Assembly: GCF_053078305.1 (NCBI RefSeq)
Contig: NZ_CP166879.1
Direction: 5' to 3' (one strand)
DNA length: 64,000 nucleotides
Shown here: positions 1 through 53,072 of the stretch, piece by piece
Layout of the letters: each line of letters begins with the position of its first letter
Position numbering within the stretch: the stretch's first letter is position 1
Made by a program: the position numbers and the translations under genes
Notes under the pieces: generated by a model
Database searches by the model: none
What the model was told of the DNA's origin: nothing
Seen by the model: the letters and a program-made list of their open reading frames with translations, nothing else

Positions 1-1924
<1,924 letters not shown>

Positions 1925-1966
1925 TTATAGCACAGTGGTGGTGACTTGACCACCGTGCGCGTAGTG

Positions 1967-11214: not shown

Positions 11215-12237
11215 GAGATCGCTTAACAGAACGGCGATGCTTTGACCTCCCGCTGTTTGTTCAAGCGCAATTTTGACAATAATTGTCAACGGCACGGAAA
11301 GCAGCATACCCACCGGTCCTAACAACCATCCCCAAAAAATCAACGACAAAAATACCACCAATGTGGAAAGACCCAGCCCACGCCCCATGATGCGCGGCTC
11401 CAGAATATTGCCGAAGACCAGATTAATCAGCAGATATCCCGCCAGCACCAGCAACGCTTCGTAGAAGCCATTAAATACCAGTACCTGAGCGATAGGGGGG
11501 ATTGCCGCGAGAACTGAACCAATATTAGGGATGTAATTAAGCGCAAAGGCCAGCAATCCCCAGACAAAAGCGAAGCGAACATCGAGGGCGGCGAGCATCG
11601 CCCATGCGACCAGGCCGGTGATGATGCTGATGGCTGTTTTCAGCACCAGATAATGAGACACACTGTCAATCGCACGCTGAATCGCCGCCATCCCTTCAAC
11701 CGGACGCGCCATCATTTGCTGAAATTTTCCGGGCAATTGTGGCACTTCGAGCAGCATAAACAGCACCGTCAGCAGCAATAAAAATATTGATGACATGGCA
11801 TTAGATAACTGCGTCAATAAGTTGGTGAGCAACGTCATCGCCGCGTTCGGATCAATGTAATGCGCCAGTTGGTCAACTGAGACGTCAATCCCTACGCGTT
11901 GCAACAACGGCTCAAGAGCTTGCAGCGGCGTCATAATAGAGTTGCGATATTGCGGTAACGTCCGCGTCAACTCGTTGAGCGCGGAACCCAGATAAGCTAA
12001 CAGCAACACCATAGCCATCACAATGATGGTCATCAAAATCGACACCGCCAGTACACGCGGCACTCGCCAGCGGACCATGTGTTGCACCAGCGGGTTAAGA
12101 ATAACAGCAATAAATAATGCGAGAATAAACGGCACGATGATCTCGGCGGCAAAACGGATACCGCAGAGAATAATGACCAGCATTCCCAACATAATGACGA
12201 TTTTTAGGCCATTGAGCGTGATGATCGGCTTTGCCAT
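11203..12237 (-). CDS. tqsA: AI-2 transport protein TqsA (YdgG)
   Basis: 344-aa polytopic membrane ORF ([14 protein letters not shown]...); synteny. Confidence 0.85.
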
Positions 12238-12648
12238 GCTTGTCCCCGTTTTTTCTTCCTTTGCTAATAATAATGTCTTTTTCGCTCCGTCATCATAACG
12301 AAAATCAAACCGCTCAGGTAAAGAAGTGAAAATATTTTGAGTTAATTCTTAAGCTATGATACAAATCAGGCGTGTTCAACTACCGAGGACAATTATCATC
12401 CGCGATGACGAGAAGCAACACTGCGGATAATTGTAATATTATGGACAATTTGTTCAGGACGTTATTTTCTACATTTACCCATCTTCGTACCTCATCCACT
12501 ATCTTGCTCGTAGGTGAGCAGCACTGGCGCAACGCGCTTTAGTCCTTTCTTCTGCCAAAGCTTGCGCTAAGCGCGGGGCTTGACCACTTTACTTTGGTTT
12601 CGCTGAATTAAGCGAAAATTAAAATAATTCTCTTGCAGGAGAAGGACA

Positions 12649-13014
12649 ATGTATATTTATTGGATTTTATTAGGTCTGGCTATTGCTACAGAAATTACCG
12701 GTACGCTGTCCATGAAATGGGCGAGCGTCAGTGAGGGAAATGGCGGTTTTATTTTAATGCTGGTGATGATTTCTCTGTCGTATATATTTCTCTCTATCGC
12801 CGTTAAAAAAATCGCCTTAGGCGTAGCTTATGCGCTGTGGGAAGGTATCGGTATTTTATTTATTACCTTGTTTAGCGTTTTGTTATTCGACGAAAGTTTA
12901 TCGCTGATGAAAATTGCCGGGTTAACCACCCTGGTCGCCGGGATTGTGTTGATAAAATCAGGTACCCGTAAAGCGCGTAAACCTGAACTGGAGGTGAACC
13001 ATGGCGCAGTTTGA
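12649..13014 (+). CDS. mdtJ: Spermidine export protein MdtJ (SMR family)
   Basis: 121-aa four-helix SMR-type ORF; long upstream leader (12250-12648); overlaps mdtI. Confidence 0.9.
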
Positions 13015-19626: not shown

Positions 19627-20835
19627 CGTCCGCGAGATTACCGACGCAATTACGCAGGCAATCAATAAACCGGGGAGTAGCTGATACTCCCCGGTCATTT
19701 CACATATCATCAACGTCGACATAATCGGCGCGTGCGTGGTTGCCGCCAACAGTGTCGCCATCCCGGTCAATCCGAGTAAAAGCGTAATTTCTTCGCCATC
19801 AGGGAACCATAATCCCATGCTACGACCATACAACATGCCAATGGCAAGACCGATAAATAGCGTCGGTGTAAAGACACCACCGGGTGCGCCGGAACCGCTA
19901 CTCGCCAGCACGGCACACAGTTTACAAAGGAAGATCCCGGCAATGATCATTAACAGTGGCGGGGCGGTTAAAAAGGATTGTACGGTGCTATAGCCGTTGC
20001 CCCACACTGCAGGTGTGAACAGGGAAAGCAGACCCACGATCAACCCGCCTAGTGCCAGTTGCCAGGGCGGCGCAAGTTTGAGACTCACAAATCCACGATG
20101 ACAGGCGTTCATTAACGTTAACAACAGTGGTCCGCACAGACCTGCCAGCACACCTGTACTGATAATCAGCGCATAGTCACGAGCCTGAACCGTCACTGAG
20201 AATTGTACGCTGTAGAGTAACGCGTCGCTATGATTAATCAGATTGCTAACCAGCAATGCCACGACGGCGGAAATAATCACCGGGCCGAGAGAGGCCAACA
20301 TCATAGTGCCAAACAGCACTTCGGCTATAAATAAACTGCCAGCAAGCGGGGCACGATAGGCCGCAGCCATTCCCGCCGCGGCCCCACAGGCGATCCATAA
20401 TTTCCACTCCTGGCGTGGCGTAAAACGTTGGGCAAAACAGGAGGCGGCAAGGGCAGCTAAAAGAATCATCGCACCTTCGCGACCAATTGCACTGCCGCTG
20501 GTTACTACCAGCAGAGAGGCAAGCGATTTAACCAGGCTTGCTGCGTAATCAAACTGACCCTCGGTTTGCAACGCTTCCATATAATCGGTCGGCGCATGAG
20601 GGCGTTGCTGGGTAAATTTCTGCCAGCCCATCAGCAACAAACCCGCCGCCAGTCCGCCGAGCGCCGGAGTTAGCAGCCGTCGCCAGGGGGAAAGGTTTGT
20701 CGCTGCATTGACCAGACTGCCGGAGTCATTATTGAGGAACAACCACTCCAGTAGCAGCATCGCATGACGAAACCCGGCAACGGCAAAGGCCGCGAGAATA
20801 CCGACGACTGTTGCGATAAGCAGACGGCGGAACAT
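19579..20835 (-). CDS. clcB: ClC-type voltage-gated chloride channel ClcB
   Basis: Translation [12 protein letters not shown]..., GREGA selectivity motif; trimmed to the 418-aa form; 3' end overlaps ynfK convergently. Confidence 0.85.
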
Positions 20836-21029
20836 AGTGCGCAGATCCGGATAGATGTGTAGATGATGCATGAGCAGAAATGGGCAATGAAACACGGGCG
20901 ACTATTTTGCGGCAAAAGAGGCCAGCCGCAAAAGCAGTGCGTGCTTTAAGAGATAAAAAAACGTGACACTGTAACCTATTATTGCCGGATTGCGCGTAAT
21001 CGTCACCATCCGGCAATATTACGGTGATC

Positions 21030-21644
21030 CTATCGAAACAGCGGTTTAACCGCGACAGGAATTAACAGTTGTGATTGCCATTGCGCCAGCGTTAAGCGAG
21101 CCAGTTCACCCAGTGCACGGTAGAAAGGGTGTTCTGCTTTTTCGATAAAAACATCAAGAAAACGTGTTGACCACGGAAAAAGGTGCCATGCCAGCAATTC
21201 TTCGCATTCTGTCTGGCGACCATTCTCCGCCAACCACGCAGCCATCAACAGCAGTGAACCAAAATGATCTTCCGGTTCGTTTTGCTTCATTTCAAACTGA
21301 ATGCCTTTCTCGCGCATCCACTGACGAAGTGCCAATGTTGAATCGCCAAACAGCACAGATTCGCGATCCAGCCAGACCGACCCCCACGGCGGAGACGGCA
21401 GTGCCCACGGGCCGACAAACAAACGCTGCCAGGCCTGGGCGTGAGTCTCTTCACACTGTGTCTGAAAAGCCGTCACCAGCGGCGCTAATGACGCTTCTGG
21501 TAGAGGCCACTGAGTTTCCCAGCCGTCACTGGTGAGTACCGCAACCAGAGGTGCGGCTTCAGCACTCTCTGGAGCGTAGTAAAACAGTGCGCCCAACACG
21601 CGCGCCGCAACAGAAAAATTATCTTGCTGTGAAAAATGGGTCAT
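21030..21644 (-). CDS. dmsD: Tat proofreading chaperone DmsD
   Basis: Translation MTHFSQQDNFSVAARVLGALFYYAPES...; downstream of ynfH. Confidence 0.85.
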   Translation of the reverse strand: MTHFSQQDNFSVAARVLGALFYYAPESAEAAPLVAVLTSDGWETQWPLPEASLAPLVTAFQTQCEETHAQAWQRLFVGPWALPSPPWGSVWLDRESVLFGDSTLALRQWMREKGIQFEMKQNEPEDHFGSLLLMAAWLAENGRQTECEELLAWHLFPWSTRFLDVFIEKAEHPFYRALGELARLTLAQWQSQLLIPVAVKPLFR

Positions 21645-21686
21645 TCCTAACATCCTGAAATGTGCGGGTTGCCCCGCACTAATTTG

Positions 21687-22541
21687 TTAACCTGCAATAG
21701 CCATTCCTACCGTCATGTGCAGGCCATAAAAGAGCACACGCCCGATCATCTCACCGCCAAGTATGAGGATTAGCCCCAGAATAAGTCCGGCAACGTGAGG
21801 TTCACGGCGACGAATGAGCGGACAAAGCCAGCATCCAAGACCTGCGCATAACAATACCACACGCCAGACCTGTAAGGAGGCGTAATCTGGTACCAGTGCG
21901 CTGGCTTGTTGCACGGATGAGTGAATAGACGACAGAGACAAACCTTGCAGCACAATCACCCCGGCACAAGCGATCAGCGCCAGAACGCTAATGATGGCAA
22001 ATGGTGTGGTATTAAATGTAACGCGGGCTGCCCGCAGAATTGCGGCAGCAAGTATTGGACCACTCAACAATACCGTCAGGAAGAAAGCCAGCGTAGTGTA
22101 ACCGTTATGCCAGGTTGGCACAGTGTCGATTTGATACACGCAGGTCATCATCCAGACGAAAATGACGCCGAGCGCCATGCTGACAAGTAACCAGAGTTTC
22201 CCCAACGCTTGCGGCATTTTACCGATGACCGCCACCAGCCACCATAGTCCGCCAACGGCAAAAAATATGGAACCGGCAGCAATCTCGTTACTTAGACCAG
22301 AAGCTCCGATTCGATTCAGCGAGTTAAACGCCCGCAGTGGCGATCCCAGGTGCATGACAGAGGCAATAAACCCGATGCCCATCAACAGCCAGAGGAAAAA
22401 CATGCCACGAACAATGTGCTGACGGTCTGCGTCATTTTTGGCGGCGAACCAGCCAATTCCGCTAACAATCAGCGCGCCTACTACGCATTGACCCAATACG
22501 GTAAAGATAACCAGTGGCCATTCATGCCATCCATTTCCCAT
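21687..22541 (-). CDS. ynfH: DMSO-reductase-type membrane anchor subunit YnfH (DmsC paralogue)
   Basis: Translation MGNGWHEWPLVIFTVLGQ...; 284-aa polytopic protein; track ORF trimmed by 80 codons. Confidence 0.85.
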   Translation of the reverse strand: MGNGWHEWPLVIFTVLGQCVVGALIVSGIGWFAAKNDADRQHIVRGMFFLWLLMGIGFIASVMHLGSPLRAFNSLNRIGASGLSNEIAAGSIFFAVGGLWWLVAVIGKMPQALGKLWLLVSMALGVIFVWMMTCVYQIDTVPTWHNGYTTLAFFLTVLLSGPILAAAILRAARVTFNTTPFAIISVLALIACAGVIVLQGLSLSSIHSSVQQASALVPDYASLQVWRVVLLCAGLGCWLCPLIRRREPHVAGLILGLILILGGEMIGRVLFYGLHMTVGMAIAG

Positions 22542-22542
22542 T

Positions 22543-23160
22543 TTACACTTCCTCCGGATTAGCCAGATAACCAGTGGTATCGCCGGTCGGGCGGCTGTTG
22601 GCGTTAGGTTTGATAACGATATTGGGTTTTGTGAAATGCGCGCGCGGCAGTGGCGCGACGGCAGCAAGAGTGCCGTGCTTCTGGCGCAGCTCTTCAATTG
22701 GACCGAACTCAAGTGCACGCAGCGGGCAGGATTCGACACATATGGGTTGTTTCCCCTCGGCGACGCGCGAATAACAACCATCGCACTTCGTCATGTGCCC
22801 TTTTTCAGCATTGTACTGTGGCGCGCCGTACGGACAAGCCATGTGGCAGTAGCGGCAGCCGATACAAACATCTTCATCAACCACCACAAAGCCATCTTCA
22901 CGCTTATGCATTGCGCCGCTGGGGCAGACTTTTGTACATGCGGGGTCATCGCAATGGTTACAGGAGATGGAGAGATAATAAGCGAACACGTTCTGGTGCC
23001 AGACGCCATTATCTTCCTGCCAGTCGCCGCCAGCATATTCATAAATACGGCGGAAACTGACTTCCGGGCCAAGATCTTTAAAATCTTTGCACGCCAGTTC
23101 GCAGGTTTTACAGCCAGTACAGCGGCTGGAATCGATAAAAAATCCATATTGTGTGGTCAT
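22543..23160 (-). CDS. ynfG: DMSO-reductase-type Fe-S subunit YnfG (DmsB paralogue)
   Basis: 205-aa ORF with four ferredoxin-type Cys clusters. Confidence 0.9.
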   Translation of the reverse strand: MTTQYGFFIDSSRCTGCKTCELACKDFKDLGPEVSFRRIYEYAGGDWQEDNGVWHQNVFAYYLSISCNHCDDPACTKVCPSGAMHKREDGFVVVDEDVCIGCRYCHMACPYGAPQYNAEKGHMTKCDGCYSRVAEGKQPICVESCPLRALEFGPIEELRQKHGTLAAVAPLPRAHFTKPNIVIKPNANSRPTGDTTGYLANPEEV

Positions 23161-23170
23161 GGGCTACTCC

Positions 23171-25594
23171 TTAAACCTTTTCGATCTGGACAAGATTGCT
23201 GTGCGACGGGTTTCCCTTTGCCAGCGGTGAAGGGCGGTGAGAGGTCAGAATATTAATACTGCCGCCGTGATCGACCCGGTCACCAAACATATCCGCTTTA
23301 AGCCACGCACCTTGCCCGATGGCGGTAACGCCAGGCAGAATACGCGGAGTCACTTTTGCGGCAATCAGCATTTCTCCATTATTGTTAAATACCCGCACGG
23401 TATCGCCATGACGGATACCGCGAGCCTGAGCATCAATGGGGTTGATCCACACCTCTTGTGGGCAGGCCTGCTGTAACACATCAATATTGCCGTAGCTGGA
23501 GTGGGTACGCGCTTTGTAGTGGAAGCCCGTTAACTGCAGTGGATAGGTTTTCCGCAGGGGATCGTCCCAGCCATCAAAACCTGGGGTATACGCAGGAAGG
23601 GGATGAATAATTTCATCTTTTTTCAATTCCCAGGTATCTGCAATCTTCGCCAGTCGTTCAGAATAAATTTCGATTTTCCCCGAAGGTGTTTTCAACGGGT
23701 TTGCCTGTGGATCTTCACGGAATGCGCGGAAAGCGACGTAGTGTTCTTCCGGGCATTTTTTCTTAAAGATCCCGGTCGTTTTCATCTCCTCGTAGTCGGG
23801 CATCTCAGGGTTACGTTCCTTCGTTTTCGCATGGAGATATTTGATCCATTCATGCTGACTGCGACCTTCAGTAAAGGTTTGATAAACGTCCGGTCCTAAG
23901 CGTTTGGCGACTTCACTCAGCATCCAGTAGATGGGTTTGCGTTCAAATTTTGCTGAGGTTGCGGGTTGGGCGAGGATCACATAGCCCATATTCCCTGCAG
24001 ATTCATGAGAGATAAGGTCTTCTTGCTCTGTTGGCATCAGGTCGGGCAACAGGATATCGCAATACTTAGCCGAGGCCGTCATGAAGTGGTCAATGCCGAC
24101 AATCATCTCGCACTTGCTGTCATCCTGAAGCACCTCATGGGTGTGATTGATGTCGCCATGTTGATTGATCAATGTGTTACTGGCGTAGCACCATAAAAAC
24201 TTGATGGGGACATCCAGTTTTTCTTTTCCACGAACACCATCACGGGTCGCGGTCATTTCCGTACCATGGTCGATGGCATCTGTCCATGTAAAGACGGAAA
24301 TCTGCGTTTTAACAGGATTCTCGAGCATCGGGAACCATTCTACCCCCAGATCCCAGCTACCTTCGCGTACGCCTGAGTTGCCGCCGTTTATGCCGACGTT
24401 ACCGGTGAGAACGGAAAGCATGGCAATAGCGCGGGATGTTTGTTCGCCGTTGGAGTGTCGTTGTGGCCCCCAACCCTGACAAATATAAGCAGGTTTTGCT
24501 GAACCGATCTCTCGTGCCAACTGGATAATTTTTTCTGCCGGGATGCTGGTGATTTTTGCTGCCCATTCCGGCGTTTTAGCTATGCCGTCAGGCCCTTCGC
24601 CCAGAATATAGGCTTTATAATGCGCGTTACGTGGTGCGTTGGCGGGCAGCGTTTTTTCATCGTAACCAACACAATATTTGTCGAGAAATGGCTGATCGAC
24701 CATGTTTTCAGTAATCAGTACCCAGGCAATCGCACAGGCCAGTGCGCCATCGGTGCCAGGGCGAATGGGCAGCCATTCATCTTCACGCCCGGCAGCTGTG
24801 TCGTTATAACGTGGATCGATGACGATCATGCGTGCGTTTGAACGTTCGCGGGCTTGCTCGACGTAGTAAGTGACACCACCGCCGCTCATCCGCGTTTCTG
24901 CCGGGTTATTTCCGAACATAACGACCAGTTTCGTATTGGCGATATCATCCGGGCTGTTGCCATCATTGGCACCGAACATATAACTCATTGCGGCACTGAT
25001 CTGTGCGGTACTGTAGCTGCCATAGCGACTGAGAAAACCACCGCAAGAGTTCATCAGACGGTACGGGACGTTTGAGTTGGTGATGTTTCCGCCATCTACG
25101 CCTGTTCCGTACAGGACATGTACAGCCTCATTGCCGTAATCTTTCAGGATCCGCCGAAGATTATCACTGATGGTATCCAGGGCTTCGTCCCAACTTATCC
25201 GTTCAAATTTACCTTCACCGCGCTTGCCGACGCGCTTCATGGGATATTTCAACCTATCAGGATGATTCATCCGTCGGCGGATAGAGCGCCCGCGTAAACA
25301 CGCTCGAACCTGATGATTACCGTAGACGTCGTCACCTGTCGTATCAGATTCCACCCAGTACACGGTGTCATCTTTCACATGCAAACGTAACAGACAGCGG
25401 CTCCCGCAGTTAACGGTGCAGGAACTCCAGACCGCTTTCTCTTCTACCGGAGCCTGTGCCGCCCGGACCATTTGGGAAAATGGCAGAGTGAAAGCACTGC
25501 TTGCCAGCGCAAGACTGCCAAGTGCGGAGGTTTTCATCAGACTTCTACGGCTGATTTCAGCCTTCATGAGCGCCTCTGTGGTATGGATTTTCAT
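23171..25594 (-). CDS. ynfF: Molybdopterin oxidoreductase catalytic subunit YnfF (DmsA paralogue)
   Basis: About 807-aa ORF with Tat signal (SRRSLMK) and Cys cluster; tandem paralogue of ynfE. Confidence 0.9.
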   Translation of the reverse strand: MKIHTTEALMKAEISRRSLMKTSALGSLALASSAFTLPFSQMVRAAQAPVEEKAVWSSCTVNCGSRCLLRLHVKDDTVYWVESDTTGDDVYGNHQVRACLRGRSIRRRMNHPDRLKYPMKRVGKRGEGKFERISWDEALDTISDNLRRILKDYGNEAVHVLYGTGVDGGNITNSNVPYRLMNSCGGFLSRYGSYSTAQISAAMSYMFGANDGNSPDDIANTKLVVMFGNNPAETRMSGGGVTYYVEQARERSNARMIVIDPRYNDTAAGREDEWLPIRPGTDGALACAIAWVLITENMVDQPFLDKYCVGYDEKTLPANAPRNAHYKAYILGEGPDGIAKTPEWAAKITSIPAEKIIQLAREIGSAKPAYICQGWGPQRHSNGEQTSRAIAMLSVLTGNVGINGGNSGVREGSWDLGVEWFPMLENPVKTQISVFTWTDAIDHGTEMTATRDGVRGKEKLDVPIKFLWCYASNTLINQHGDINHTHEVLQDDSKCEMIVGIDHFMTASAKYCDILLPDLMPTEQEDLISHESAGNMGYVILAQPATSAKFERKPIYWMLSEVAKRLGPDVYQTFTEGRSQHEWIKYLHAKTKERNPEMPDYEEMKTTGIFKKKCPEEHYVAFRAFREDPQANPLKTPSGKIEIYSERLAKIADTWELKKDEIIHPLPAYTPGFDGWDDPLRKTYPLQLTGFHYKARTHSSYGNIDVLQQACPQEVWINPIDAQARGIRHGDTVRVFNNNGEMLIAAKVTPRILPGVTAIGQGAWLKADMFGDRVDHGGSINILTSHRPSPLAKGNPSHSNLVQIEKV

Positions 25595-25654
25595 CATTAC
25601 TCACTTATTGCTTTTCAAACAAAATGTCATGCCAGAATTTATGGTTGTAGTGGG

Positions 25655-28081
25655 TTATATTTTTTCGATCTCGACCAGATTCGTATGCTGCGGGTTTCCC
25701 TTCGCCAGTGGTGAAGGGCGCAGAGTGGTTAGCGTATTCACACAGCCTCCATGGTCGATTTTATCGCCAGACATATTGGCCTCGTGCCAGGCTCCCTGGC
25801 CCATAGCGCTAACTCCAGGGAGAATACGTGGTGTCACTTTGGCTGGTAGCCGAACTTCGCCACGATGGTTAAACACCCGCACCATATCGCCGTTGGCAAT
25901 CCCACGTTTCTGCGCATCTATAGGGTTGATCCACACCTCCTGACGGCAGGCAGCCTTCAGGAGATCAATATTGCCGTAGGTCGAGTGAGTACGGGATTTG
26001 TAATGGAAACCAAACAGTTGCAGTGGAAAGGTACTACGTTCAGGGGAGTCCCAGCCTTCAAAGGTTGAGGCATAAACTGGCAGTGGGCTTATCACTTCAT
26101 CTTTTTCCAGTTCCCAGGTACGGGCAATTTCCGCCAGCTTGCTGGAATAAATTTCAATCTTACCGGAAGGTGTTTTAAGTGGATTTGCCTCGGGGTCGTC
26201 ACGAAATGCTTTGTAGGCGACAAAATGACCATTGGGATCTTTACGCTTATAGATACCCATTTTTTTCAGTTCGTCGTAAGATGGTAACGCCGGATCTTTG
26301 GCAAGCATTTTGGCGTACAGATGTTGTAACCATTGTTCCTGCGTGCGACCTTCAGTGAACTTTTGATAGACGTCAGGTCCAAGACGTTTCGCGACTTCAC
26401 TCAGGATCCAGTAAATCGGTTTACGTTCGAATTTTTCGCTGGTGACTGGCTGGAGGAAAATGAGATATCCCATGTTACCGGCGTAGTCGTTAGGAATAAT
26501 ATCTTCCTGCTCAACGGTCATCAGGTCTGGCAGCAGAATGTCGGCATATTTTGCCGATGAGGTCATAAAGTTTTCGATGACCACAATCATTTCGCATTTC
26601 GATTCGTCCTGCAGAATTTCATGCGTTTTGTTGATGTCAGAATGCTGATTAACGAGGGTATTTCCCGCGTAGTTCCAGATGAACTTAATGGGCACATCCA
26701 GTTTATCTTTGCCGCGGACGCCATCGCGGATTGCCGTCATTTGCGGAACATGATCGATAGCATCTGTCCAGCTGAAGCAGGAAATTGACGTTTTGACCGG
26801 ATTATCCAGCACCGGCAGTCGCTCTATGGTAATGGTATAGGTCGATTCACGCGCGCCACTATTTCCGCCGCTGATGCCGACATTGCCCGTCAGAATAGGC
26901 AACATAGCAATAGCGCGTGCGGTCAGTTCGCCGTTTGCCTGGCGTTGCGGCCCCCAGCCCTGGCAGATATAAGCGGGTTTTGCTGTGCCAATTTCACGCG
27001 CCAGTTTGATGATACGGTCCACCGGGATACCGGTAATTTGCGAAGCCCACTGCGGCGTTTTCGCTGTGTTATCATCACCTTCACCAAGAATATAGGCTTT
27101 ATAGTGACCATTTTTGGGTGCATCTGCAGGTAAGGTTTTTTCGTCATAGCCGACGCAGTATTTATCGAGAAAAGGTTGATCAACGAGATTTTCGTTAATC
27201 AATACCCAGGCAATCCCCGCAACCAGCGCGGCATCGGTGCCCGGGCGAATAGGAAGCCATTCATCTTCACGACCAGCAGCCGTATCGGTATATCGCGGAT
27301 CGATAACAATCATTTTGGCGTTCGATTTCTCGCGCGCTTTTTCAAGAAGATAAGTGATGCCACCGCCGCTCATGCGGGTTTCTGCCGGGTTGTTACCAAA
27401 CATCACGACCAGCTTGCTGTTTTCAATATCCGTGGTGCTGTTGCCATCATTACTGCCGTAGGTGTAGGGCATGGCACAGGAAATTTGTGCGGTGCTGTAG
27501 GAGCCATACTGATTGAGTGAACCGCCGTAGCAGTTCATCAGGCGTTTGACCGCCGAGGCTGATGGCGAAGAGCGGGTCATATTGCCGCCAACGATCCCCG
27601 AAGAGTACTGAATATATACAGCCTCATTGCCATATTGTTCGACGGTTTTCTTCAGGCTACTGGCGATAGTATCCAGGGCTTCATCCCAGCTAATCCGTTC
27701 GAATTTGCCTTCGCCGCGTTTGCCCACGCGTTTCATTGGGTAATTCAAGCGATCGGGATGATTAATACGCCGACGGATGGAGCGACCACGCAAACAGGCG
27801 CGTACTTGATGATTGCCATACTCGTCGTTGCCGGTGTTGTCAGTTTCCACCCAGATCACTTCATTATCTTTAACATGCAGACGAAGTGCACAGCGGCTAC
27901 CACAGTTGACGGAACAGGCACCCCAGACCACTTTTTCGCTGGCCTGTTGTACTGCTGCCGCTGCACTGCGCAGGGTGAACGGTAAAGAAAAATCGCCTGC
28001 AGCCAGCGCCAGAGAACCTATTGCGGTAGATTTAACGAGTGTTCTGCGGCTGATGCCCACCATTTGTTCATTTTTGGACAT
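25655..28081 (-). CDS. ynfE: Molybdopterin oxidoreductase catalytic subunit YnfE (DmsA paralogue)
   Basis: 808-aa ORF with Tat signal (SRRTLVK); first gene of the ynfEFGH-dmsD operon. Confidence 0.9.
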   Translation of the reverse strand: MSKNEQMVGISRRTLVKSTAIGSLALAAGDFSLPFTLRSAAAAVQQASEKVVWGACSVNCGSRCALRLHVKDNEVIWVETDNTGNDEYGNHQVRACLRGRSIRRRINHPDRLNYPMKRVGKRGEGKFERISWDEALDTIASSLKKTVEQYGNEAVYIQYSSGIVGGNMTRSSPSASAVKRLMNCYGGSLNQYGSYSTAQISCAMPYTYGSNDGNSTTDIENSKLVVMFGNNPAETRMSGGGITYLLEKAREKSNAKMIVIDPRYTDTAAGREDEWLPIRPGTDAALVAGIAWVLINENLVDQPFLDKYCVGYDEKTLPADAPKNGHYKAYILGEGDDNTAKTPQWASQITGIPVDRIIKLAREIGTAKPAYICQGWGPQRQANGELTARAIAMLPILTGNVGISGGNSGARESTYTITIERLPVLDNPVKTSISCFSWTDAIDHVPQMTAIRDGVRGKDKLDVPIKFIWNYAGNTLVNQHSDINKTHEILQDESKCEMIVVIENFMTSSAKYADILLPDLMTVEQEDIIPNDYAGNMGYLIFLQPVTSEKFERKPIYWILSEVAKRLGPDVYQKFTEGRTQEQWLQHLYAKMLAKDPALPSYDELKKMGIYKRKDPNGHFVAYKAFRDDPEANPLKTPSGKIEIYSSKLAEIARTWELEKDEVISPLPVYASTFEGWDSPERSTFPLQLFGFHYKSRTHSTYGNIDLLKAACRQEVWINPIDAQKRGIANGDMVRVFNHRGEVRLPAKVTPRILPGVSAMGQGAWHEANMSGDKIDHGGCVNTLTTLRPSPLAKGNPQHTNLVEIEKI

Positions 28082-28180
28082 AACTCACTCCCTGTTCTTT
28101 ATCGTTATATAAAAGTTTATATATTGAATATTTAGCGCGCTAATAATAGAGGAAGTCTACCCATTTTGGGTTAAGAATTA

Positions 28181-28194
28181 TTAATCCATATCAA
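28181..28194. promoter_or_regulatory. Possible FNR-type site upstream of ynfE
   Basis: TTAATCCATATCAA resembles TTGAT-N4-ATCAA with one mismatch, about 100 bp upstream of the ynfE start; operon is known to be anaerobically expressed. Confidence 0.3.
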
Positions 28195-28278
28195 TAGAAG
28201 GGTATGAGTAATAAGGTGGGTTATGTTATATGTTCAAATCGCCGGATGCGTCGTATCCGGCGTTCAGTCGATAATGTA

Positions 28279-28584
28279 TTACTGCGGTTCGGCAGGCACG
28301 CCATCCTGGTTAGACTGCGCGGGAGCAGAGACGTTACCGCTGGTGGTGCGGGTGTAGAGAATTTTATGCGTATCATTAGCGCAATGCCCGACGACCTGGG
28401 AATCAGGCTGATCAACCTGGTCATTGGGTACAATACTTAACGTGAAGCTGCTTTCGGGTACGCCATTATTGATAATGCGTTGTGATATATCGCTCTGTAT
28501 GCGCTCACAGGATCCCGGCGCGGCGAGTACCGTGGGTGAGGAGAGGGCGAGCAGAAGCGCGGCACAGCAGGCTGAGAGTTTCAT
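28279..28584 (-). CDS. ynfD: Secreted protein YnfD (DUF1161)
   Basis: Translation MKLSACCAALLLALSSPTVLA (signal peptide); AAGGAG SD 6 nt upstream of this ATG. Confidence 0.8.
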   Translation of the reverse strand: MKLSACCAALLLALSSPTVLAAPGSCERIQSDISQRIINNGVPESSFTLSIVPNDQVDQPDSQVVGHCANDTHKILYTRTTSGNVSAPAQSNQDGVPAEPQ

Positions 28585-28691
28585 CATAAGCTCCTTACGC
28601 GAAGATAACTTCTTTAAGCATAGCATTTAACGTGTAAAGTACTGTATTTGCTACTATGATTGAGAATCATCTCTACTCTCTGGTGACTGAT

Positions 28692-29402
28692 GTGAAATAC
28701 AAATTACTGCCATGCTTACTCGCGATATTACTCACAGGATGTGACCGCACAGAGGTAACACTTTCATTTACTCCTGAGATGGCCAGTTTCTCTAATGAAT
28801 TCGATTTTGATCCGCTGCGTGGTCCGGTAAAAGATTTCACTCAGACATTAATGGATGAGCAAGGTGAAGTGACGAAACGTGTTTCTGGAACTTTGTCGGA
28901 AGAAGGCTGTTTTGATTCACTCGAATTACTGGATCTGGAAAATAATACCGTGGTCGCTCTGGTACTGGACGCCAATTATTACCGTGATGCCGAGACGCTG
29001 GAGAAGAGAGTACGTTTACAGGGAAAATGCCAGCTAGCGGAATTACCTTCCGCCGGGGTGAGTTGGGAAACCGATGATAATGGCTTCGTGATTAAAGCCA
29101 GCAGCAAACAGATGCAGATGGAATATCGCTATGATGATCAGGGGTATCCGCTGGGTAAAACCACGAAAAATAACGACAAAACATTATCTGTCAGCGCCAC
29201 GCCATCAACGGATCCGATCAAAAAATTAGATTACACAGCGGTTACTTTACTGAACAATCAACGGGTTGGTAATGTAAAACAGAGCTGTGAATATGACAGT
29301 CACGCCAATCCGGTGGACTGTCAGCTAATCATTGTTGATGAAGGAGTAAAACCCGCCGTCGAACGGGTTTACACCATCAAAAATACAATCGATTATTATT
29401 AA
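28692..29402 (+). CDS. ynfC: Lipoprotein YnfC (UPF0257)
   Basis: GTG start giving MKYKLLPCLLAILLTGC lipobox; 236 aa. Confidence 0.8.
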   Translation: MKYKLLPCLLAILLTGCDRTEVTLSFTPEMASFSNEFDFDPLRGPVKDFTQTLMDEQGEVTKRVSGTLSEEGCFDSLELLDLENNTVVALVLDANYYRDAETLEKRVRLQGKCQLAELPSAGVSWETDDNGFVIKASSKQMQMEYRYDDQGYPLGKTTKNNDKTLSVSATPSTDPIKKLDYTAVTLLNNQRVGNVKQSCEYDSHANPVDCQLIIVDEGVKPAVERVYTIKNTIDYY

Positions 29403-33446: not shown

Positions 33447-34721
33447 TTACCCCGCCTTGTTATGGGGCATGGTTGGGGCAAACTCGCTTAGCTGTGTATT
33501 TAACAGCGTTACCTGTGCATTATTATTTTCTGACATCCATTTTCCGTACACCTGAAACACCATTTGCGCATCGGCATGCCCCATCTGGTTTGCTATGAAT
33601 GCAGGATTAGCACCAGCTGTTAGCGACCAGCAGGCATAAGTATGTCTCGACTGATATGATTTTCGGTGGCGGAGTCCTGCTCGTTTTATTGCTGCGTCCC
33701 ACATCTGTCTTATTGAGTCAACAGTAAAATGGTCACCATAATTTTTTACTCTCGCTGACACTTCAGGTTGAAAAACAAAGGTGCATTTTTGTTTTTCTGT
33801 TCTGCCATACTCTCTGAGGTGAACATCAATGATATGCTCTTTGCTCAGTCTCGTTAGTGTCATCTGATTCTGGAGGGCCTCGATTGCTGGCTTAATAAGG
33901 TGAATTACACGATTAGTCCCCGCCTGTGTTTTTGGTACCGTAAAATGGTCTTTTGCTAAATTTCTCCTGATCATCATTGTTCCATTTTTCAGATCTATGT
34001 CCTCCCATCCAAGTGCACACAACTCACCAGGGCGAACGCCAGTATAAACAGAAACACACCACAAATTTTTGGCTTGCTGATTTCTGCACGCATCTATAAG
34101 GCGGATAAATTCCTCCCGCGAAAGAGGATCTGGAATGGTTCTTGATTCCTTTAATGGCGATATCCCCTTAAACGGATTATCTGCCAGGTAGCTGTTATCA
34201 ACACCAAACTGGAACACGGCGTTAAGATTTGTCATGTAATTATTTACGGTAACAGCCGATCTCCCGGGTTGTGTAACAATATAGTTACTTTTGGGGATCT
34301 GGTATCCAGTCAGTAACTCTTTACGAACCTCCAGTAATTTTTCTTTATTAATCGATGAGGCAAGATTTTTTTCACCGATTATGCTCAGGATATTTTTGAT
34401 GACGGCACGGTATGTATTGAGTGAACTTCTGGCAACTTCGGCCTCTTTTAGTGCCAGAAATTTTTCGGCCAGTTCACCTATAGTCAAATTTTGTCTGGCT
34501 TCCCCAAATTTTTCCAGATTGTGGGAGTAGGGGAACTGTTTTGCGTAGTCAAAAATCCCCGTTTTTATTGCGTAACAAACAGAAGCGCGTAGTTCACCAG
34601 CGATGCGTCTGTTTTTTACTGTGTCAGGGACACCGAGGTTTTCCCTGACTCTTACGCCTTTATAAACAAACCAGATGCGTAATGTCCCCCCGTGTTTTTC
34701 TACGCCTGTCGGATATTTCAT
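33447..34721 (-). CDS. int: Phage integrase (tyrosine recombinase)
   Basis: 424-aa ORF with C-terminal catalytic R...H-x-x-R...Y region (RHTYACWSLTAG...HADAQMVFQVYGKW); adjacent to the disrupted ydfJ. Confidence 0.9.
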   Translation of the reverse strand: MKYPTGVEKHGGTLRIWFVYKGVRVRENLGVPDTVKNRRIAGELRASVCYAIKTGIFDYAKQFPYSHNLEKFGEARQNLTIGELAEKFLALKEAEVARSSLNTYRAVIKNILSIIGEKNLASSINKEKLLEVRKELLTGYQIPKSNYIVTQPGRSAVTVNNYMTNLNAVFQFGVDNSYLADNPFKGISPLKESRTIPDPLSREEFIRLIDACRNQQAKNLWCVSVYTGVRPGELCALGWEDIDLKNGTMMIRRNLAKDHFTVPKTQAGTNRVIHLIKPAIEALQNQMTLTRLSKEHIIDVHLREYGRTEKQKCTFVFQPEVSARVKNYGDHFTVDSIRQMWDAAIKRAGLRHRKSYQSRHTYACWSLTAGANPAFIANQMGHADAQMVFQVYGKWMSENNNAQVTLLNTQLSEFAPTMPHNKAG

Positions 34722-35077: not shown

Positions 35078-37597
35078 TTAAAAATCAGCCTGATTCGGGA
35101 ACAGTTTTTGCCAGATAACTGAAACGTATTTTGCCTGGTAACGCGCATCGTGCAGGGCATTATGGCGTTCACCCTCAAATGTGATGACGTTGCGGGCATC
35201 GAAATCCATCACCAGTCCCAGGGCAACAATCGTTCTTACATCACGATCGTTGTAGTGACGCCACGGGCAGGGGATTTCTTGTCGTTTATATGAACGGCTT
35301 AAAATTACGTTGTCGAAGTTGGCTCCATTTCCCCAGACCTGAACAAAAAACTCACCGGAGTTTTCGTCTATAAATTCCCGTAATTGTAAAAGCGCATCAT
35401 CAAGCGGTATTCGATCAGCTAAAATGGCGGCACGGGCTTCGCCAGAGCGTTGAAGCCACCATTCGATGGTGCTTATGTCTACAGTGCCACCACATGTATC
35501 CATATCAATTATTTTGCTGAATTCTGGCCCCAGTTCTCCGGTTTGCGGATCGAAAAAGACTGCGCCTATTGAGGCTATTGGTGCGTCAGGATTTTTGCCC
35601 ATCGTTTCAAGGTCAATCATCAGGTGATCCCACATTCTGCTGGTGGATGTGCTTTCACGATGACCGTTCACCTTAATTAAGGGATTTGCTGTCTCGCCTG
35701 TTTCATTATTGCCATTGGCATGTTGATCGCCTTCGGTGCACTCCTTGTTCGGGTGTCCGGCACTTTCCATTTCCTCCAGATCTTTTTCCCGGGCTTCATC
35801 CTGGCTTTCTTCGTTGAATGTCTCCTGGTATGTTGCGTCGCCCATCACCGCGCCACAGTCAGGACAGTTGCCGCCACCGCTCTGACCGCAGGCGGTGCAG
35901 ACTTTTTCCTCTTCCTGTTGCGCTACTGGTTCGGATTGTTTCGTTTCTGGCTCGTCTTGTAACGCATTTTGGCTGTTTTGTTCTGCTTTCTGGTCGTTCT
36001 GTTCCGTTTCTTGCTGGTTCTGGTTCACAGAATCGCAGGTTTCAATCCCCTTAACCCATTTCGAATCATTCGGGTCGCTAATCCCTTCAACAAACTCACC
36101 ACGGGAAGCGGCAAGCAATTTGTCGGCATCTGGTCGACTGATGTCTGCTGCCTCCATAATTTTATTTACTTCTTCAGCAGTAACTTTTACCTGTGACTTG
36201 TCATCCAGCGGCTGCGGGTCCTGATGATGTTCAACTGTATCCGCTGCCATTGTTTCAGCCGTTGCCTGTTCATCTGCCATTGCGCCAGATGGCTGCGGTT
36301 TTTCTTCATCATCCTGTTTTCCTTCTTTTGTTACACGCTGAGGGATAGGGGCAGAGGAGCGACCGCAGGCAATATCCACGATTTCCGGATCAGGGTTGGC
36401 ATGATCGGTTTCGGTCAGTACTTTGTTCAGATATTCGGTAACACGGTGGGGAGTAGCCTCGATACCAATTGGTGCTTCTTTCACGGACGCAACTACTATC
36501 GCGCGGGAATAATCCAGGTGACCAGGCATGGCGATGAATTTGTCACGAAAAACAGAAAAGGGCGGCTTATTCTCTGAAACGATTTCTTCAATGCGTTTGG
36601 CGTGTGCCGGATGTGGATTGTAAATATCGATGTCCATTGAACGGGCCAGAACGCCAGCGGCAACGTCACGTTCCACTGACGCATCATCGTGGACAAAACC
36701 TTCACCGCGATCGGTAAGAATTCCTCCGCCAGCATTAGCGCCGGACGGGGTGCGATTGATTTCAGATACGCAATTTCCCTTTGCCCACTCTTTTGTCAAC
36801 AGCCCCTGATCAAGGTAGTCAGTCTTCATCCAGGTGGAAATGAACTTGTCGAATTCTGCCGGGCTGATACGGCGTGTTGTTGCGTGAGTGAATGCCTTTT
36901 CCACCGAATGCGCCAGTCTTCCAAGATGATGGTTTGTCAGCTTATCCAGCTCAGGATGCGAACGTACTGCAGTAAGCAGGCTCTGTATGTTTCCATCTTC
37001 CATATCCATTTCGATGCGGATCACGTCCTTGCGTTGTTCTGGTGTGGCGTGATGTTTGTATTTCTCGTCGAACTCCTGACCAAAGAAGTAGAGGTGCAGG
37101 AAGCGATGGGTAAGACTCAGGGTGGAGACGGGGATTTCACATTCAGGGCAGTCATCGTTGCTGTCCGGGGATTCGCTTTTATCTGCGTTCTCTGTCTGAG
37201 AGTCACTTTGTTCATCGCAGTCACGGCTGACACCTGTAACAGCTTCGCCGCTGGTATTGTCAGTGCTGGCAGGTTTGTCCTGAGCTGAAGGGGAAGGAGC
37301 TATAAATATCATTGTGATACCATCTTCCCCGCCTTTTTCGTAACGGTTGCAGAATTCAGTATCAAACACGCCTTCTGGAGGAAGGTCATTCACAACGGGT
37401 AAATGGACGCGAACAGGTTTTTTAAAGTCGTCCTCGTCATAATCATTATCATCCATTGCGGTAATGCAGCGGGAGATGGCAACAGATAATTTTTTTGCTG
37501 TAGTCCAGTAAAAACCACCTTTAATCCCAAGGCGTTTTCTGACCTTGTCATTTTTTGCTTCGCAATATAGTGCAAAAGTTTCTTTATCAGTGCTCAT
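35078..37597 (-). CDS. Prophage exonuclease, 839 aa, with C-terminal DEDDh-type 3'-5' exonuclease domain (often annotated exodeoxyribonuclease VIII)
   Basis: C-terminal approx. 190 aa carry the exonuclease motifs (MIDLETMG ... NGANFD ... HNALHDARYQA); central region strongly acidic and low-complexity with a CxxC...CxxC pair. Confidence 0.6.
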   Translation of the reverse strand: MSTDKETFALYCEAKNDKVRKRLGIKGGFYWTTAKKLSVAISRCITAMDDNDYDEDDFKKPVRVHLPVVNDLPPEGVFDTEFCNRYEKGGEDGITMIFIAPSPSAQDKPASTDNTSGEAVTGVSRDCDEQSDSQTENADKSESPDSNDDCPECEIPVSTLSLTHRFLHLYFFGQEFDEKYKHHATPEQRKDVIRIEMDMEDGNIQSLLTAVRSHPELDKLTNHHLGRLAHSVEKAFTHATTRRISPAEFDKFISTWMKTDYLDQGLLTKEWAKGNCVSEINRTPSGANAGGGILTDRGEGFVHDDASVERDVAAGVLARSMDIDIYNPHPAHAKRIEEIVSENKPPFSVFRDKFIAMPGHLDYSRAIVVASVKEAPIGIEATPHRVTEYLNKVLTETDHANPDPEIVDIACGRSSAPIPQRVTKEGKQDDEEKPQPSGAMADEQATAETMAADTVEHHQDPQPLDDKSQVKVTAEEVNKIMEAADISRPDADKLLAASRGEFVEGISDPNDSKWVKGIETCDSVNQNQQETEQNDQKAEQNSQNALQDEPETKQSEPVAQQEEEKVCTACGQSGGGNCPDCGAVMGDATYQETFNEESQDEAREKDLEEMESAGHPNKECTEGDQHANGNNETGETANPLIKVNGHRESTSTSRMWDHLMIDLETMGKNPDAPIASIGAVFFDPQTGELGPEFSKIIDMDTCGGTVDISTIEWWLQRSGEARAAILADRIPLDDALLQLREFIDENSGEFFVQVWGNGANFDNVILSRSYKRQEIPCPWRHYNDRDVRTIVALGLVMDFDARNVITFEGERHNALHDARYQAKYVSVIWQKLFPNQADF

Positions 37598-38631: not shown

Positions 38632-38794
38632 AATGGCAGCCTCTTGGTTGAGTATTAATAACTCACCACCAAGGTTTTCCACGACCATAAGGGTGGTGAG
38701 ACGTACAGGGGTGGAAATACCGGTCAACCAAGAATCCGGCCAGCCTTGCGGCTGCCCTGCACGCCCCACCATAATCTGAATGTGGCTGTGCATT

Positions 38795-38823
38795 ACGCAT
38801 AAAAAAACCGCCTGAGCGCGGTT
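38795..38823 (-). terminator. Weak intrinsic terminator between the DicF-like RNA and the Rha-like gene
   Basis: Minus-strand AACCGCGCTCAGGCGG followed by TTTTTTT; stem only 4-5 bp. Confidence 0.3.
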
Positions 38824-39119
38824 ATGCGCTTGATTGAATTCCGGGTTTCCACGCCCGGCACCCGCTTTATGAGGTGCAGATGAACTATAATTCCACCCGT
38901 TCTGGTTTTCAATAGCTACATTCAACATTTTCTCTTACCCTTCATCACCGAAGTGAACTTTGTTGATGCAGTGCCTGGTGCCTCCAGGTGACGTTAACCA
39001 GTTAACAATTAACGCCGGAATACAGAAGTATGCCCGTTACGCCCCGTAAAAGACCACTTTACGGTTTTAACTGTTCCGCGTGCGCTTAGCCGCATTCACC
39101 GCATCACAAAATTCACTTT

Positions 39120-39177
39120 AAAAAGGGTGGCAGAGCAGTCACGGAGTAGAACTGATGCCACCAAAGACTACACATGG
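39120..39177 (-). ncRNA. dicF: DicF-like small RNA
   Basis: Minus strand reads ...GGTGGCATCAGTTCTACTCCGTGACTGCTCTGCCACCCTTTTT, near-identical to the 3' two-thirds of K-12 DicF including its terminator hairpin; 5' segment diverges. Confidence 0.55.
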
Positions 39178-46094: not shown

Positions 46095-46385
46095 CCTGGC
46101 CTGAAGCATTAACAACGGTAGGAATTGCGATGGCGGTGGCGCTGGTGGTGTATTCGATTTGCCGCTGGGGATAAAAACGGTTTGCGGGAAAAGGAGAGTT
46201 AAGTAGAATTGCAGCGGGTGCTTGAGGCTATCTGTCTCAGGCATGAACACCAAAAGGCAGATAGAGAAAAGCCCCAGTTAACATTACGCGTCCGGCAAGA
46301 CGCTTAACATTAATCTGAGGCTCAATCTGTGAACGGCAAATCTAGGTTAGCCTCTTACGCGCCGAAAGGCAAGGAGAAGCAGGCT

Positions 46386-46541
46386 ATGAAGCAGCAAAAG
46401 GCGATGTTAGTCGCCCTGATCGTCATCTGTATTACCGTCATTGTGACGGCACTGGTAACGAGGAAAGACCTCTGCGAGGTACGAATCCGAACCGGCCAGA
46501 CGGAGGTCGCTGTCTTCACAGCTTACGAACCTGAGGAGTAA
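46386..46541 (+). CDS. hokD: Hok/Gef-family type I toxin (HokD-like)
   Basis: Translation MKQQKAMLVALIVICITVIVTALVTRKDLCEVRIRTGQTEVAVFTAYEPEE; upstream in-frame extension corresponds to the overlapping mok frame. Confidence 0.85.
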   Translation: MKQQKAMLVALIVICITVIVTALVTRKDLCEVRIRTGQTEVAVFTAYEPEE

Positions 46542-51757: not shown

Positions 51758-51833
51758 GGCCCTTTAGCTCAGTGGTGAGAGCGAGCGACTCATAATCGCC
51801 AGGTCGCTGGTTCAAATCCAGCAAGGGCCACCA
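51758..51833 (+). tRNA. tRNA with CAU anticodon, ileX-like (tRNA-Ile2 lysidine type)
   Basis: Cloverleaf GGCCCTTTAGCTCAGTGGTGAGAGC...ACTCATAATCG...GGTTCAAATCC...AAGGGCCACCA; close to E. coli ileX. Confidence 0.75.
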
Positions 51834-51842
51834 TATCACATA

Positions 51843-51919
51843 CCGCCATTAGCTCATCGGGACAGAGCGTCAGCCTTCGAAGCTGGTTGCGCGGGGTTCG
51901 AGTCCTCGATGGCGGTCCA
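51843..51919 (+). tRNA. tRNA-Arg (anticodon TCG)
   Basis: Acceptor stem CCGCCAT/ATGGCGG, anticodon loop CTTCGAA, T-loop GGTTCGAGTCC, 3' CCA. Confidence 0.7.
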
Positions 51920-51932
51920 TTATCGGTATTCA

Positions 51933-52009
51933 GCGTTGTTAGCTCAGCCGGACAGAGCAATTGCCTTCTAAGCAATCGGTCACTGGTTCGAATCCAGTAC
52001 AACGCGCCA
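51933..52009 (+). tRNA. tRNA-Arg (anticodon TCT)
   Basis: Acceptor stem GCGTTGT/ACAACGC, anticodon loop CTTCTAA, T-loop GGTTCGAATCC, 3' CCA. Confidence 0.75.
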
Positions 52010-52771: not shown

Positions 52772-53019
52772 CCGGGTATCAGTCATGCCCCGAAAATTTT
52801 AAATGTCTCACAATTCAGACGGTTGACAGTTGTCTGTTTTGCGGGGAGTTTGTTAAAAGAAACTGGCATGGTGAATCCCCCTGAGCGGAGGGGCGACTGG
52901 TGCATTAGGTGTTATCTTTGATACCTAGGAAAGTGAACGCGCGGGTTTGGTTGCACCGGGCTGAACTCACCGGGAGGCACCCGGCATCATGCGCATGATG
53001 ATACAGATACGCGGCTTTA

Positions 53020-53046
53020 GCCCCTCTCCGGAGGGGCTTTTATATG
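53020..53046 (+). terminator. Intrinsic terminator
   Basis: GCCCCTC-TCCG-GAGGGGC hairpin followed by TTTTATATG. Confidence 0.6.
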
Positions 53047-53072
53047 AATTTTGTAAGATATGAGTAAACTAA

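Follow-up and report, generated by a model that had tools for sequence, protein, structure and literature searches.

The ynfEFGH-dmsD operon in contig NZ_CP166879.1 and its anciently duplicated molybdoenzyme genes ynfE and ynfF

The window analysed here is a 64,000-nucleotide stretch of contig NZ_CP166879.1 (RefSeq assembly GCF_053078305.1). In its open reading frame listing, positions 23171-28081 hold two adjacent ORFs on the minus strand, ynfE and ynfF (Table 1), and these limits are exact: the ynfF stop codon ends at 23171, and the ynfE ATG begins with its A at 28081. The first-pass annotation had described a tandem ynfE/ynfF pair of 808 and 807 aa, figures that agree with the annotated lengths. 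RefSeq places the start of ynfF at the second ATG of an ATGATG, which gives 807 aa, and the in-frame ATG at 25597 gives 808 aa. A Shine-Dalgarno-like AGTGAGT stands just 5' of the ynfF start, and the identical string precedes ynfE. Gene identities, domains, ligand residues, operon order, duplication age and population distribution were all determined directly.

Table 1. Positions in the window of the genes of the operon and of features within and around them.
Feature	Position	Strand	Description	Basis
ynfE	25655..28081	-	808 aa; Tat-exported Mo-bisMGD catalytic subunit, first gene of the operon	ORF, NCBIfam, Pfam
ynfE signal peptide	~aa 1-43 (28081-27953)	-		length from PMC3316669
ynfE Mo-ligand Ser196	codon 27494-27496	-		alignment to Ser147 of 1eu1
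ynfE-ynfF intergenic spacer	25595..25654	-	60 nt	sequence read directly
ynfF	23171..25594	-	807 aa; paralogous Tat-exported Mo-bisMGD catalytic subunit	ORF, NCBIfam, Pfam
ynfF signal peptide	~aa 1-45 (25594-25460)	-		alignment with DmsA
ynfF Mo-ligand Ser195	codon 25010-25012	-		five-sequence alignment and codon check
ynfG	22543..23160	-	205 aa; DmsB-like electron-transfer subunit, four [4Fe-4S] clusters	TIGR02951 DMSO_dmsB 264.8 bits (cut-off 214.1), Pfam Fer4_11
ynfH	21687..22541	-	284 aa; DmsC-like membrane anchor, menaquinol-oxidising	Pfam DmsC PF04976 E = 4.5e-128, full length
dmsD (ynfI)	21030..21644	-	204 aa (RefSeq-type start); Tat proofreading chaperone	NF008632 347.3 bits (cut-off 162), Pfam Nitrate_red_del
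FNR-box-like palindrome TTGATATGGATTAA	28181..28194	.	one mismatch to TTGAT-N4-ATCAA; ~100 nt 5' of the ynfE ATG	

Both large proteins exceed the cut-off of the TIGR02166 dmsA_ynfE model (777.7), and both match Pfam Molybdop_Fe4S4, Molybdopterin and Molydop_binding above the gathering cut-offs. The narrower NCBIfam models separate them: YnfE scores 1792.6 bits on NF041885 selenate_YnfE (cut-off 1675) and 1475 on the YnfF model (below 1650), and YnfF scores 1775.2 bits on NF041884 selenate_YnfF (cut-off 1650) and 1483 on the YnfE model (below 1675). Neither reaches the DmsA-specific cut-off of 1600 (1340 and 1320 bits). Telling ynfE, ynfF and dmsA apart therefore requires model-specific cut-offs; the best generic hit can swap the names, because each protein scores above 1300 bits with every one of the three models. 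Together with the RefSeq annotation of the orthologous stretches in K-12 and O145:H28 and with the literature, these cut-offs confirm the naming proposed in the first-pass annotation.

In an alignment of five sequences (window YnfE and YnfF, K-12 YnfE and YnfF, and DmsA), the FS0 cysteines C56/C60/C64/C96 (YnfE numbering; C-x3-C-x3-C ... C), the SRRxLxK motif and the Mo-ligand serine are invariant. The closest solved fold by sequence is Rhodobacter DMSO reductase DorA (PDB 1eu1, E = 1e-76); its Ser147 (GDYSTA) aligns with YnfE Ser196 (GSYSTA), and a YGSYSTA motif is present in both genes. The 1eu1 match begins only at YnfE residue 120, and DorA and the TMAO reductases are soluble periplasmic enzymes that have neither the N-terminal FS0 cysteine cluster nor DmsB- or DmsC-type partners.

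The earlier suggestion of matching Tat signals also held, since both N-termini combine a twin-arginine motif with a similar h-region (ISRRTLVKSTAIGSLALA in YnfE, ISRRSLMKTSALGSLALA in YnfF). Each thus presents what characterises a DmsD-recognised Tat signal, an S/T-R-R-x-F-L-K motif followed by a DmsA-like hydrophobic region: YnfE has SRRTLVK and YnfF has SRRSLMK, each followed by a GSLALA h-region. The n-region ahead of the RR motif differs (MSKNEQMVG in YnfE, MKIHTTEALMKAE in YnfF), and the same difference between the two signals has been reported previously (PMC5203670), as has the resemblance of DmsA, YnfE and YnfF in their h- and c-regions (PMC3316669, PMC5203670). DmsD binds the signal peptides of all three proteins (PMC5203670, PMC3316669).

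Directly 3' of ynfF, and on the same strand, lie ynfG, ynfH and dmsD, with 10 nt, 1 nt and 42 nt between successive genes, the NF008632 DmsD match covering residues 4-207 of the longest dmsD ORF. The catalytic genes are thus followed on one strand by a DmsB-like gene, a DmsC-like gene and dmsD, as in an operon of this type, and this order is that of K-12 b1587-b1591 and of O145:H28 in the RefSeq annotation. The likeness to K-12 extends to orientation and flanks (ynfD, ynfC and speG upstream, clcB downstream), and the differences are allelic only. The K-12 operon is reportedly treated by Lubitz and Weiner in 2003 and by Guymer et al. in 2009. Salmonella enterica, a different genus, has an orthologous ynfEFGH-dmsD locus, likened here by its published description, with the same tandem ynfE-ynfF and with a selenate reduction that depends on DmsD and Tat (PMC5203670).

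DmsABC (dmsA, b0894) is built like the operon of the window: its Mo-bisMGD/FS0 catalytic subunit is exported by Tat, another subunit carries four [4Fe-4S] clusters, and an anchor oxidises quinol. Both systems use the chaperone DmsD, and the Tat motif, the FS0 cysteines and the Mo-ligand serine are conserved. Unlike DmsABC, the ynf operon has two catalytic genes as well as dmsD, and its assigned substrate is selenate/tellurate. The locus is almost certainly the canonical E. coli ynfEFGH-dmsD operon, with ynfE and ynfF as ancient tandem duplicates that are both paralogues of dmsA; no observation speaks against this identification. The pair, described in the literature as DmsA paralogues (PMC5203670, PMC12724226, PMC3316669), and its operon are already known, textbook E. 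coli.

A consensus promoter and terminator scan of positions 20800-28700 found nothing 5' of ynfE or in the ynfE-ynfF spacer, and promoter-like sites were fewer than in shuffled sequences. A missing sigma-70-like site in such a scan is usual for an activator-dependent promoter. The FNR-box-like palindrome and the sequence around it are identical in K-12, and the pattern occurs six times in the window against 3.3 expected, which is not above chance. The activator of the operon promoter probably acts at 28181-28194. Control of ynfEFGH by FNR is stated in the literature (PMC10845959, citing Xu, Busby & Browning 2009).

At the protein level, YnfE and YnfF share 566 of 801 aligned residues (71% identity, 85% positives; BLASTP, 1226 bits, E = 0) over residues 10-808, and 71% is also the identity given for their Salmonella counterparts (PMC5203670). 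The long identical peptide stretches noticed in the first reading are real, the longest run being 26 aa (YPMKRVGKRGEGKFERISWDEALDTI) and the next 20, 19, 18 and 18 aa. At the DNA level the genes are 69.9% identical, with a pS of 0.70 (dS ~2, saturated) and a dN of 0.21. Either copy shares 67% of its residues with DmsA and 71% with its tandem partner; adjacent, co-oriented, homologous over their full length and nearer to each other than to DmsA, the two have the properties of tandem duplicates. Judged from this divergence, they are an old duplication and not repeated DNA. Between the window and K-12, dN/dS is ~0.08 for ynfE and ~0.03 for ynfF, which indicates that both copies are under purifying selection. 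Gene conversion between the paralogues was considered and rejected: in 80-codon windows sliding along the whole pair, pS stays high throughout (0.60-0.83), with no conversion tract. Of the 55 sites where the window ynfE differs from that of K-12, ynfF has the window base at 23 and the K-12 base at 17, and the sites do not cluster in a way that would suggest ynfF or dmsA as donor.

By homology and published genetics, YnfE and YnfF would be alternative molybdenum catalytic subunits of a membrane-bound selenate/tellurate reductase. Under anaerobiosis, FNR would activate the promoter 5' of ynfE. YnfE and YnfF would be matured in the cytoplasm, each with Mo-bis(MGD) and one [4Fe-4S] cluster (FS0), and DmsD, the product of the last gene, would bind the h-region of their twin-arginine signals during cofactor insertion. 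Once folded, the catalytic subunit would be exported via Tat, probably with the ferredoxin-like YnfG, and dock on the YnfH anchor. Electrons would pass from menaquinol to YnfH, the Fe-S clusters of YnfG, FS0 and finally the serine-ligated Mo centre, which would reduce selenate or tellurate (and S-oxides) in the periplasm. We infer activity, stoichiometry and regulation from homology with DmsABC and from published genetics. That genetics was done in K-12, BW25113 and Salmonella. ynfEF are cited as tellurate reductase genes, with reference to Fujita 2021. Deleting ynfEF in E. coli abolishes selenate reduction (PMC12724226). YnfE is reported as the main selenate reductase, and in Salmonella YnfF contributes little (PMC5203670). 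The same study states that a direct biochemical assay for the enzyme is lacking (PMC5203670), and there is no YnfEFGH structure or purified enzyme on record, the closest solved relatives being the soluble Rhodobacter DMSO reductase and the TMAO reductases.

Two isoenzymes, YnfE-GH and YnfF-GH, with a common electron-transfer module are the most likely arrangement by analogy, because ynfG and ynfH each occur once in the operon and DmsABC is a trimer with 1:1:1 stoichiometry. Alternatively, YnfE and YnfF may both be stoichiometric subunits of one four-subunit YnfEFGH complex. Several papers write of a 'YnfEFGH selenate reductase complex', and the transcript of both catalytic genes includes just one ynfG and one ynfH. 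However, in the homologous DmsABC each DmsB and DmsC goes with a single catalytic subunit, selenate reduction persists in a Salmonella ΔynfF mutant, where YnfE is the 'sole selenate reductase catalytic subunit' (PMC5203670), and in about 10% of complete E. coli genomes ynfF is destroyed while ynfE, ynfG, ynfH and dmsD are retained. As the two proteins have also been termed 'paralogous selenate reductase isoenzymes' (PMC12724226), we consider a single complex unlikely and retain the two isoenzymes.

The region was matched in 5322 of 5426 complete E. coli genomes, 5126 of them with at least 80% query coverage. A ynfF pseudogene with two internal deletions (580 bp and 274 bp) was observed in 546 of the 5426, ynfE being intact; its carriers include the ST131 strains ZH193 and EC958. 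An IS3 lies inside ynfF in some O145 strains. A ynfF pseudogene in roughly one complete genome in ten, the widely used EC958 among them, bears on ynfF expression and knockout data from such strains.

The window ynfE is itself a rare allele: none of the 5426 complete genomes matches it at more than 98.6% identity, and the divergence clusters in its first 300 nt and in the ynfD region upstream. Its product is 98.5% identical to K-12 b1587, with 12 changes. Among these, G30D falls in the h-region of the signal, and G445V affects a glycine that is invariant in the alignment of five sequences; YnfF is 99.9% identical to b1588, with the single change E47Q. Sequencing error was rejected as the source of the odd YnfE residues, the exact 808-aa protein being present in at least 32 blocks of independent assemblies. 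Either substitution could alter function, G30D by introducing a charge into the hydrophobic stretch of the Tat signal that DmsD binds and G445V by replacing a glycine common to YnfE, YnfF and DmsA. Full activity of this allele, DmsD binding included, is assumed here. We think it quite improbable that this is a lineage-specific variant in which G30D and G445V impair export or catalysis and the lineage relies on YnfF; if true, such reliance would be the reverse of the ST131-type ynfF loss, and the paralogues would be reciprocally dispensable across E. coli.

Less probable still, indeed very hard to sustain, is that one of the two window copies is redundant and heading for loss, the locus being effectively one with a single catalytic subunit. 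The dispensability of ynfF across the species (the 546 deleted copies and the IS3 in some O145 strains), the small part of YnfF in Salmonella selenate reduction (PMC5203670) and the unusual substitutions of the window YnfE could all be read in this manner. Yet both window ORFs are full length with all cofactor ligands and the Tat motif intact, YnfF is one residue from its K-12 counterpart, dN/dS is low (~0.03-0.08) for both genes, and the exact YnfE protein recurs in the independent assemblies mentioned above. Two retained catalytic genes thus remain the preferred reading.

The first-pass annotation had also warned that the repeated DNA of the pair can confound assembly and mapping, and had proposed a pairwise alignment as the check. 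The alignment upholds the kinship of the proteins (71%), but at 69.9% DNA identity it reveals two distinct genes, and the warning itself fails. Repeated DNA in this sense is near-identical DNA with shared exact words of at least k-mer or seed length (~19-31 nt); the longest exact word common to ynfE and ynfF is 17 nt, and they have no k-mers of 18 nt or more in common. We give next to no credit to a recent duplication, or effectively repeated DNA, leading to collapse, mis-joins or ambiguous read mapping: the genes are adjacent, equally oriented and equal in length, and a repeat search picks out collinear segments of 300 nt that lie 2484 nt apart, but these segments are only 70-77% identical, pS is saturated, the two-gene arrangement is assembled in the 5126 well-covered complete genomes, and megablast with ynfF by itself returns 5331 places in 5316 records, a single place in almost all genomes. 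The saturated dS and the presence of the pair in those genomes likewise rule out an assembly artefact. The pair poses no assembly or mapping hazard, and special handling is therefore unnecessary. The most similar windows of the two genes reach 83% identity over 100 nt and 81% over 150 nt.

The interval 23171-28081 runs exactly from the stop codon of ynfF to the start codon of ynfE, and the tandem pair that the first-pass annotation named there is genuine, bears the right names and was known before. Both proteins contain the Pfam domains Molybdop_Fe4S4, Molybdopterin oxidoreductase and Molydop_binding, and each passes its own NCBIfam model: the upstream ORF scores 1792.6 bits with YnfE (cut-off 1675) and fails YnfF (1475, cut-off 1650), whereas the downstream ORF scores 1775.2 bits with YnfF and fails YnfE (1483). 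Both far exceed the NCBIfam DmsA/YnfE subfamily cut-off and stay below the DmsA-specific one (1340 and 1320 bits, cut-off 1600). The lengths of 807 and 808 aa agree with the annotation, since RefSeq starts ynfF at the second of two adjoining ATGs; this start is ambiguous, and the gene caller of one assembly picked a later one, giving 798 aa. The same Shine-Dalgarno-like string, AGTGAGT, precedes both genes (gggAGTGAGTtATG and aAGTGAGTaATGATG; 25594-25610, 28081-28095).

The long identical peptide stretches are equally evident, with 566/801 identities in BLASTP (71%; 85% positives, 1226 bits, E = 0) and longest runs of 26, 20, 19, 18 and 18 residues. The Tat signals said to match do so in the twin-arginine motif at both N-termini and in the very similar hydrophobic region that follows (ISRRTLVKSTAIGSLALA and ISRRSLMKTSALGSLALA), but not in the segments preceding the RR motif, which are unrelated, as they also differ in Salmonella (PMC5203670). 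Three further same-strand genes, ynfG, ynfH and dmsD, lie directly downstream of ynfF. Gene order and flanking genes (clcB downstream; ynfD, ynfC, speG, ynfB, ynfA and rspAB upstream) are the same in K-12 (b1587-b1591) and in O145:H28 RM12761, and the 4.9-kb stretch was matched by megablast in 5322 of 5426 complete E. coli genomes, with at least 80% coverage in 5126.

Features of the ynf locus, its ynfF pseudogene equivalents and the adjoining prophage (window positions unless a comparison locus is named)
Feature	Position	Strand	Remark
ynfE	25655-28081	-	808 aa; upstream in transcription direction
ynfF, first ATG	23171-25597	-	808 aa
ynfF, RefSeq start	23171-25594	-	807 aa
ynfG	22543-23160	-	DmsB-type model TIGR02951, above cut-off
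ynfH	21687-22541	-	Pfam DmsC, full-length match
dmsD	21030-21644	-	NF008632, above cut-off
YnfE G30D	27992-27994		codon 30; signal h-region, the DmsD-binding hydrophobic part
YnfE G445V	26747-26749		codon 445; glycine kept in K-12 YnfE, both YnfF and DmsA
Candidate FNR box	28181-28194		TTGATATGGATTAA
ynfF pseudogene, ZH193	L002 (ZH193 locus) 1501-3070		equivalent to 23171-25594
ynfF pseudogene, EC958	L009 (EC958 locus) 11264-12833		equivalent to 23171-25594
Integrase ORF	33447-34721	-	prophage
Exonuclease-like ORF	35078-37597	-	prophage
C4 antisense	38689-38776		Rfam
isrK	38801-38877		Rfam
DicF	39125-39176		Rfam
sok	46216-46391		Rfam
tRNA trio Met(cat), Arg(tcg), Arg(tct)	51758-52009
STnc100	52837-53049		Rfam

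The only non-trivial claim of the first-pass annotation, that the repeated DNA can confound assembly and mapping, is wrong. The concern finds no support because the two genes are only 69.9% identical in DNA (1685/2412 aligned positions), their longest exact match is 17 nt with no shared k-mer of 18 nt or more, and a repeat search of the window recovered them just as collinear stretches that are 70-77% identical. Their most similar stretches reach 83% over 100 nt and 81% over 150 nt, and the rest of the window contains no 20-mer of the region. Nei-Gojobori counts gave pS = 0.70 (dS ~2, saturated) and dN = 0.21, with the same figures for the K-12 pair, and each copy is 67% identical to DmsA in protein, slightly below the 71% between copies. 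YnfE and YnfF of Salmonella are also 71% identical to each other (PMC5203670), so that the duplication is, judging from these identities, older than the Escherichia-Salmonella split. Gene conversion between the paralogues left no sign, as pS is uniformly high along the pair (0.60-0.83 in 80-codon windows) and the bases peculiar to the window ynfE do not favour those of ynfF or dmsA.

In an alignment of YnfE and YnfF from the window and from K-12 with DmsA (five sequences), the Tat motif S11 R12 R13 x L15 x K17 (YnfE numbering), the cysteines of the FS0 [4Fe-4S] cluster motif (C56, C60, C64, C96) and the serine of YGSYSTAQ are invariant. The PDB copy searched contained no structure of DmsA, YnfE or YnfF; the closest solved one was Rhodobacter DMSO reductase (1eu1, E = 1.3e-76), opposite whose molybdenum ligand Ser147 sit YnfE S196 and YnfF S195 in the phmmer alignment.

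The window ynfF is near common alleles (best match 99.8%; 3158 complete E. coli genomes at 99% or above), and its protein differs from K-12 YnfF at one amino acid. The window ynfE is a genuine, selected, rare allele: its best match among the 5426 complete genomes is 98.6%, none reaching 99%, and 900 bp across its 5' end and ynfD reach at best 98.2%. It differs from K-12 at 55 nucleotides, 19 of them within the first 309 nt, and at 12 amino acids, including G30D and G445V; dN/dS against K-12 or O145 is 0.05-0.08, and at least 32 blocks of draft assemblies encode exactly this protein. This allele (25655-28650, ynfE and ynfD) was probably imported by recombination. Between E. coli lineages ynfE is 3-4 times more polymorphic than the adjoining ynfF (dS 0.073-0.082 versus 0.019-0.024, for window and O145 each against K-12), a disparity suggesting that ynfE and ynfF have not shared one recombination history.

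At 80% coverage or more, ynfF is found in only 4739 of the 5426 complete genomes, versus 5111 for ynfE. The ST131-type genomes ZH193 and EC958 carry ynfF as a 'frameshifted' pseudogene of 1570 bp that lacks two internal segments, nt 715-1294 (580 bp) and nt 2069-2342 (274 bp) of the gene, while ynfE, ynfG, ynfH and dmsD are intact; an 80-nt probe for the first junction matched in full in 546/5426 genomes. The 'ynfF' whose expression in EC958 was found unlike that of other reductase genes in a 2025 study is the doubly deleted pseudogene. Several O145 strains carry an IS3-family transposase in ynfF, leaving two annotated fragments (H5-H9, e.g. NZ_CP031345.1).

The function of ynfEFGH in the window is assigned from homology with DmsABC and from published genetics. 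In E. coli, deleting ynfEF abolishes the reduction of selenate to elemental selenium (PMC12724226), and ynfEF have been cited, with reference to Fujita et al. (2021), as genes for tellurate reductase. Salmonella selenate reductase depends on Tat and on DmsD, which binds the signal peptides of DmsA, YnfE and YnfF via the last part of the h-region; its main catalytic subunit is YnfE, the sole one in ΔynfF, and YnfF 'does not contribute greatly' (PMC5203670; PMC3316669; PMC4464133). YnfE and YnfF would be alternative catalytic subunits with one YnfG-YnfH electron-transfer module common to both. Two isoenzymes sharing YnfG-YnfH are most likely, and a single YnfEFGH complex holding both catalytic subunits is improbable, because DmsABC is a trimer of 1:1:1 composition, activity persists in ΔynfF strains and ynfF alone has been lost from many natural isolates. 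In work attributed to Lubitz and Weiner from 2003, YnfFGH expressed from the dms promoter reportedly supports DMSO respiration, and DmsB and DmsC are said to be replaceable by YnfG and YnfH.

PMC10845959 places ynfEFGH among FNR-regulated molybdoenzyme operons, with Xu, Busby & Browning 2009 as source. A near-consensus FNR box is found ~100 nt ahead of the ynfE start codon, where the sequence matches K-12 exactly; as the pattern itself shows no enrichment across the window (6 matches versus 3.3 expected), the box is a candidate site for FNR.

Everything to the right of rspB (33400-63100) is a lambdoid prophage. Its Met-Arg-Arg tRNA trio is an arrangement that Stx phages have ahead of stx. Between the trio and 53647 there is no ORF of at least 180 aa, and hence no stxA-sized gene. 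Identity to the O145:H28 genome falls sharply from ~33.2 kb, so that the prophage which O145:H28 has at this site is another one.
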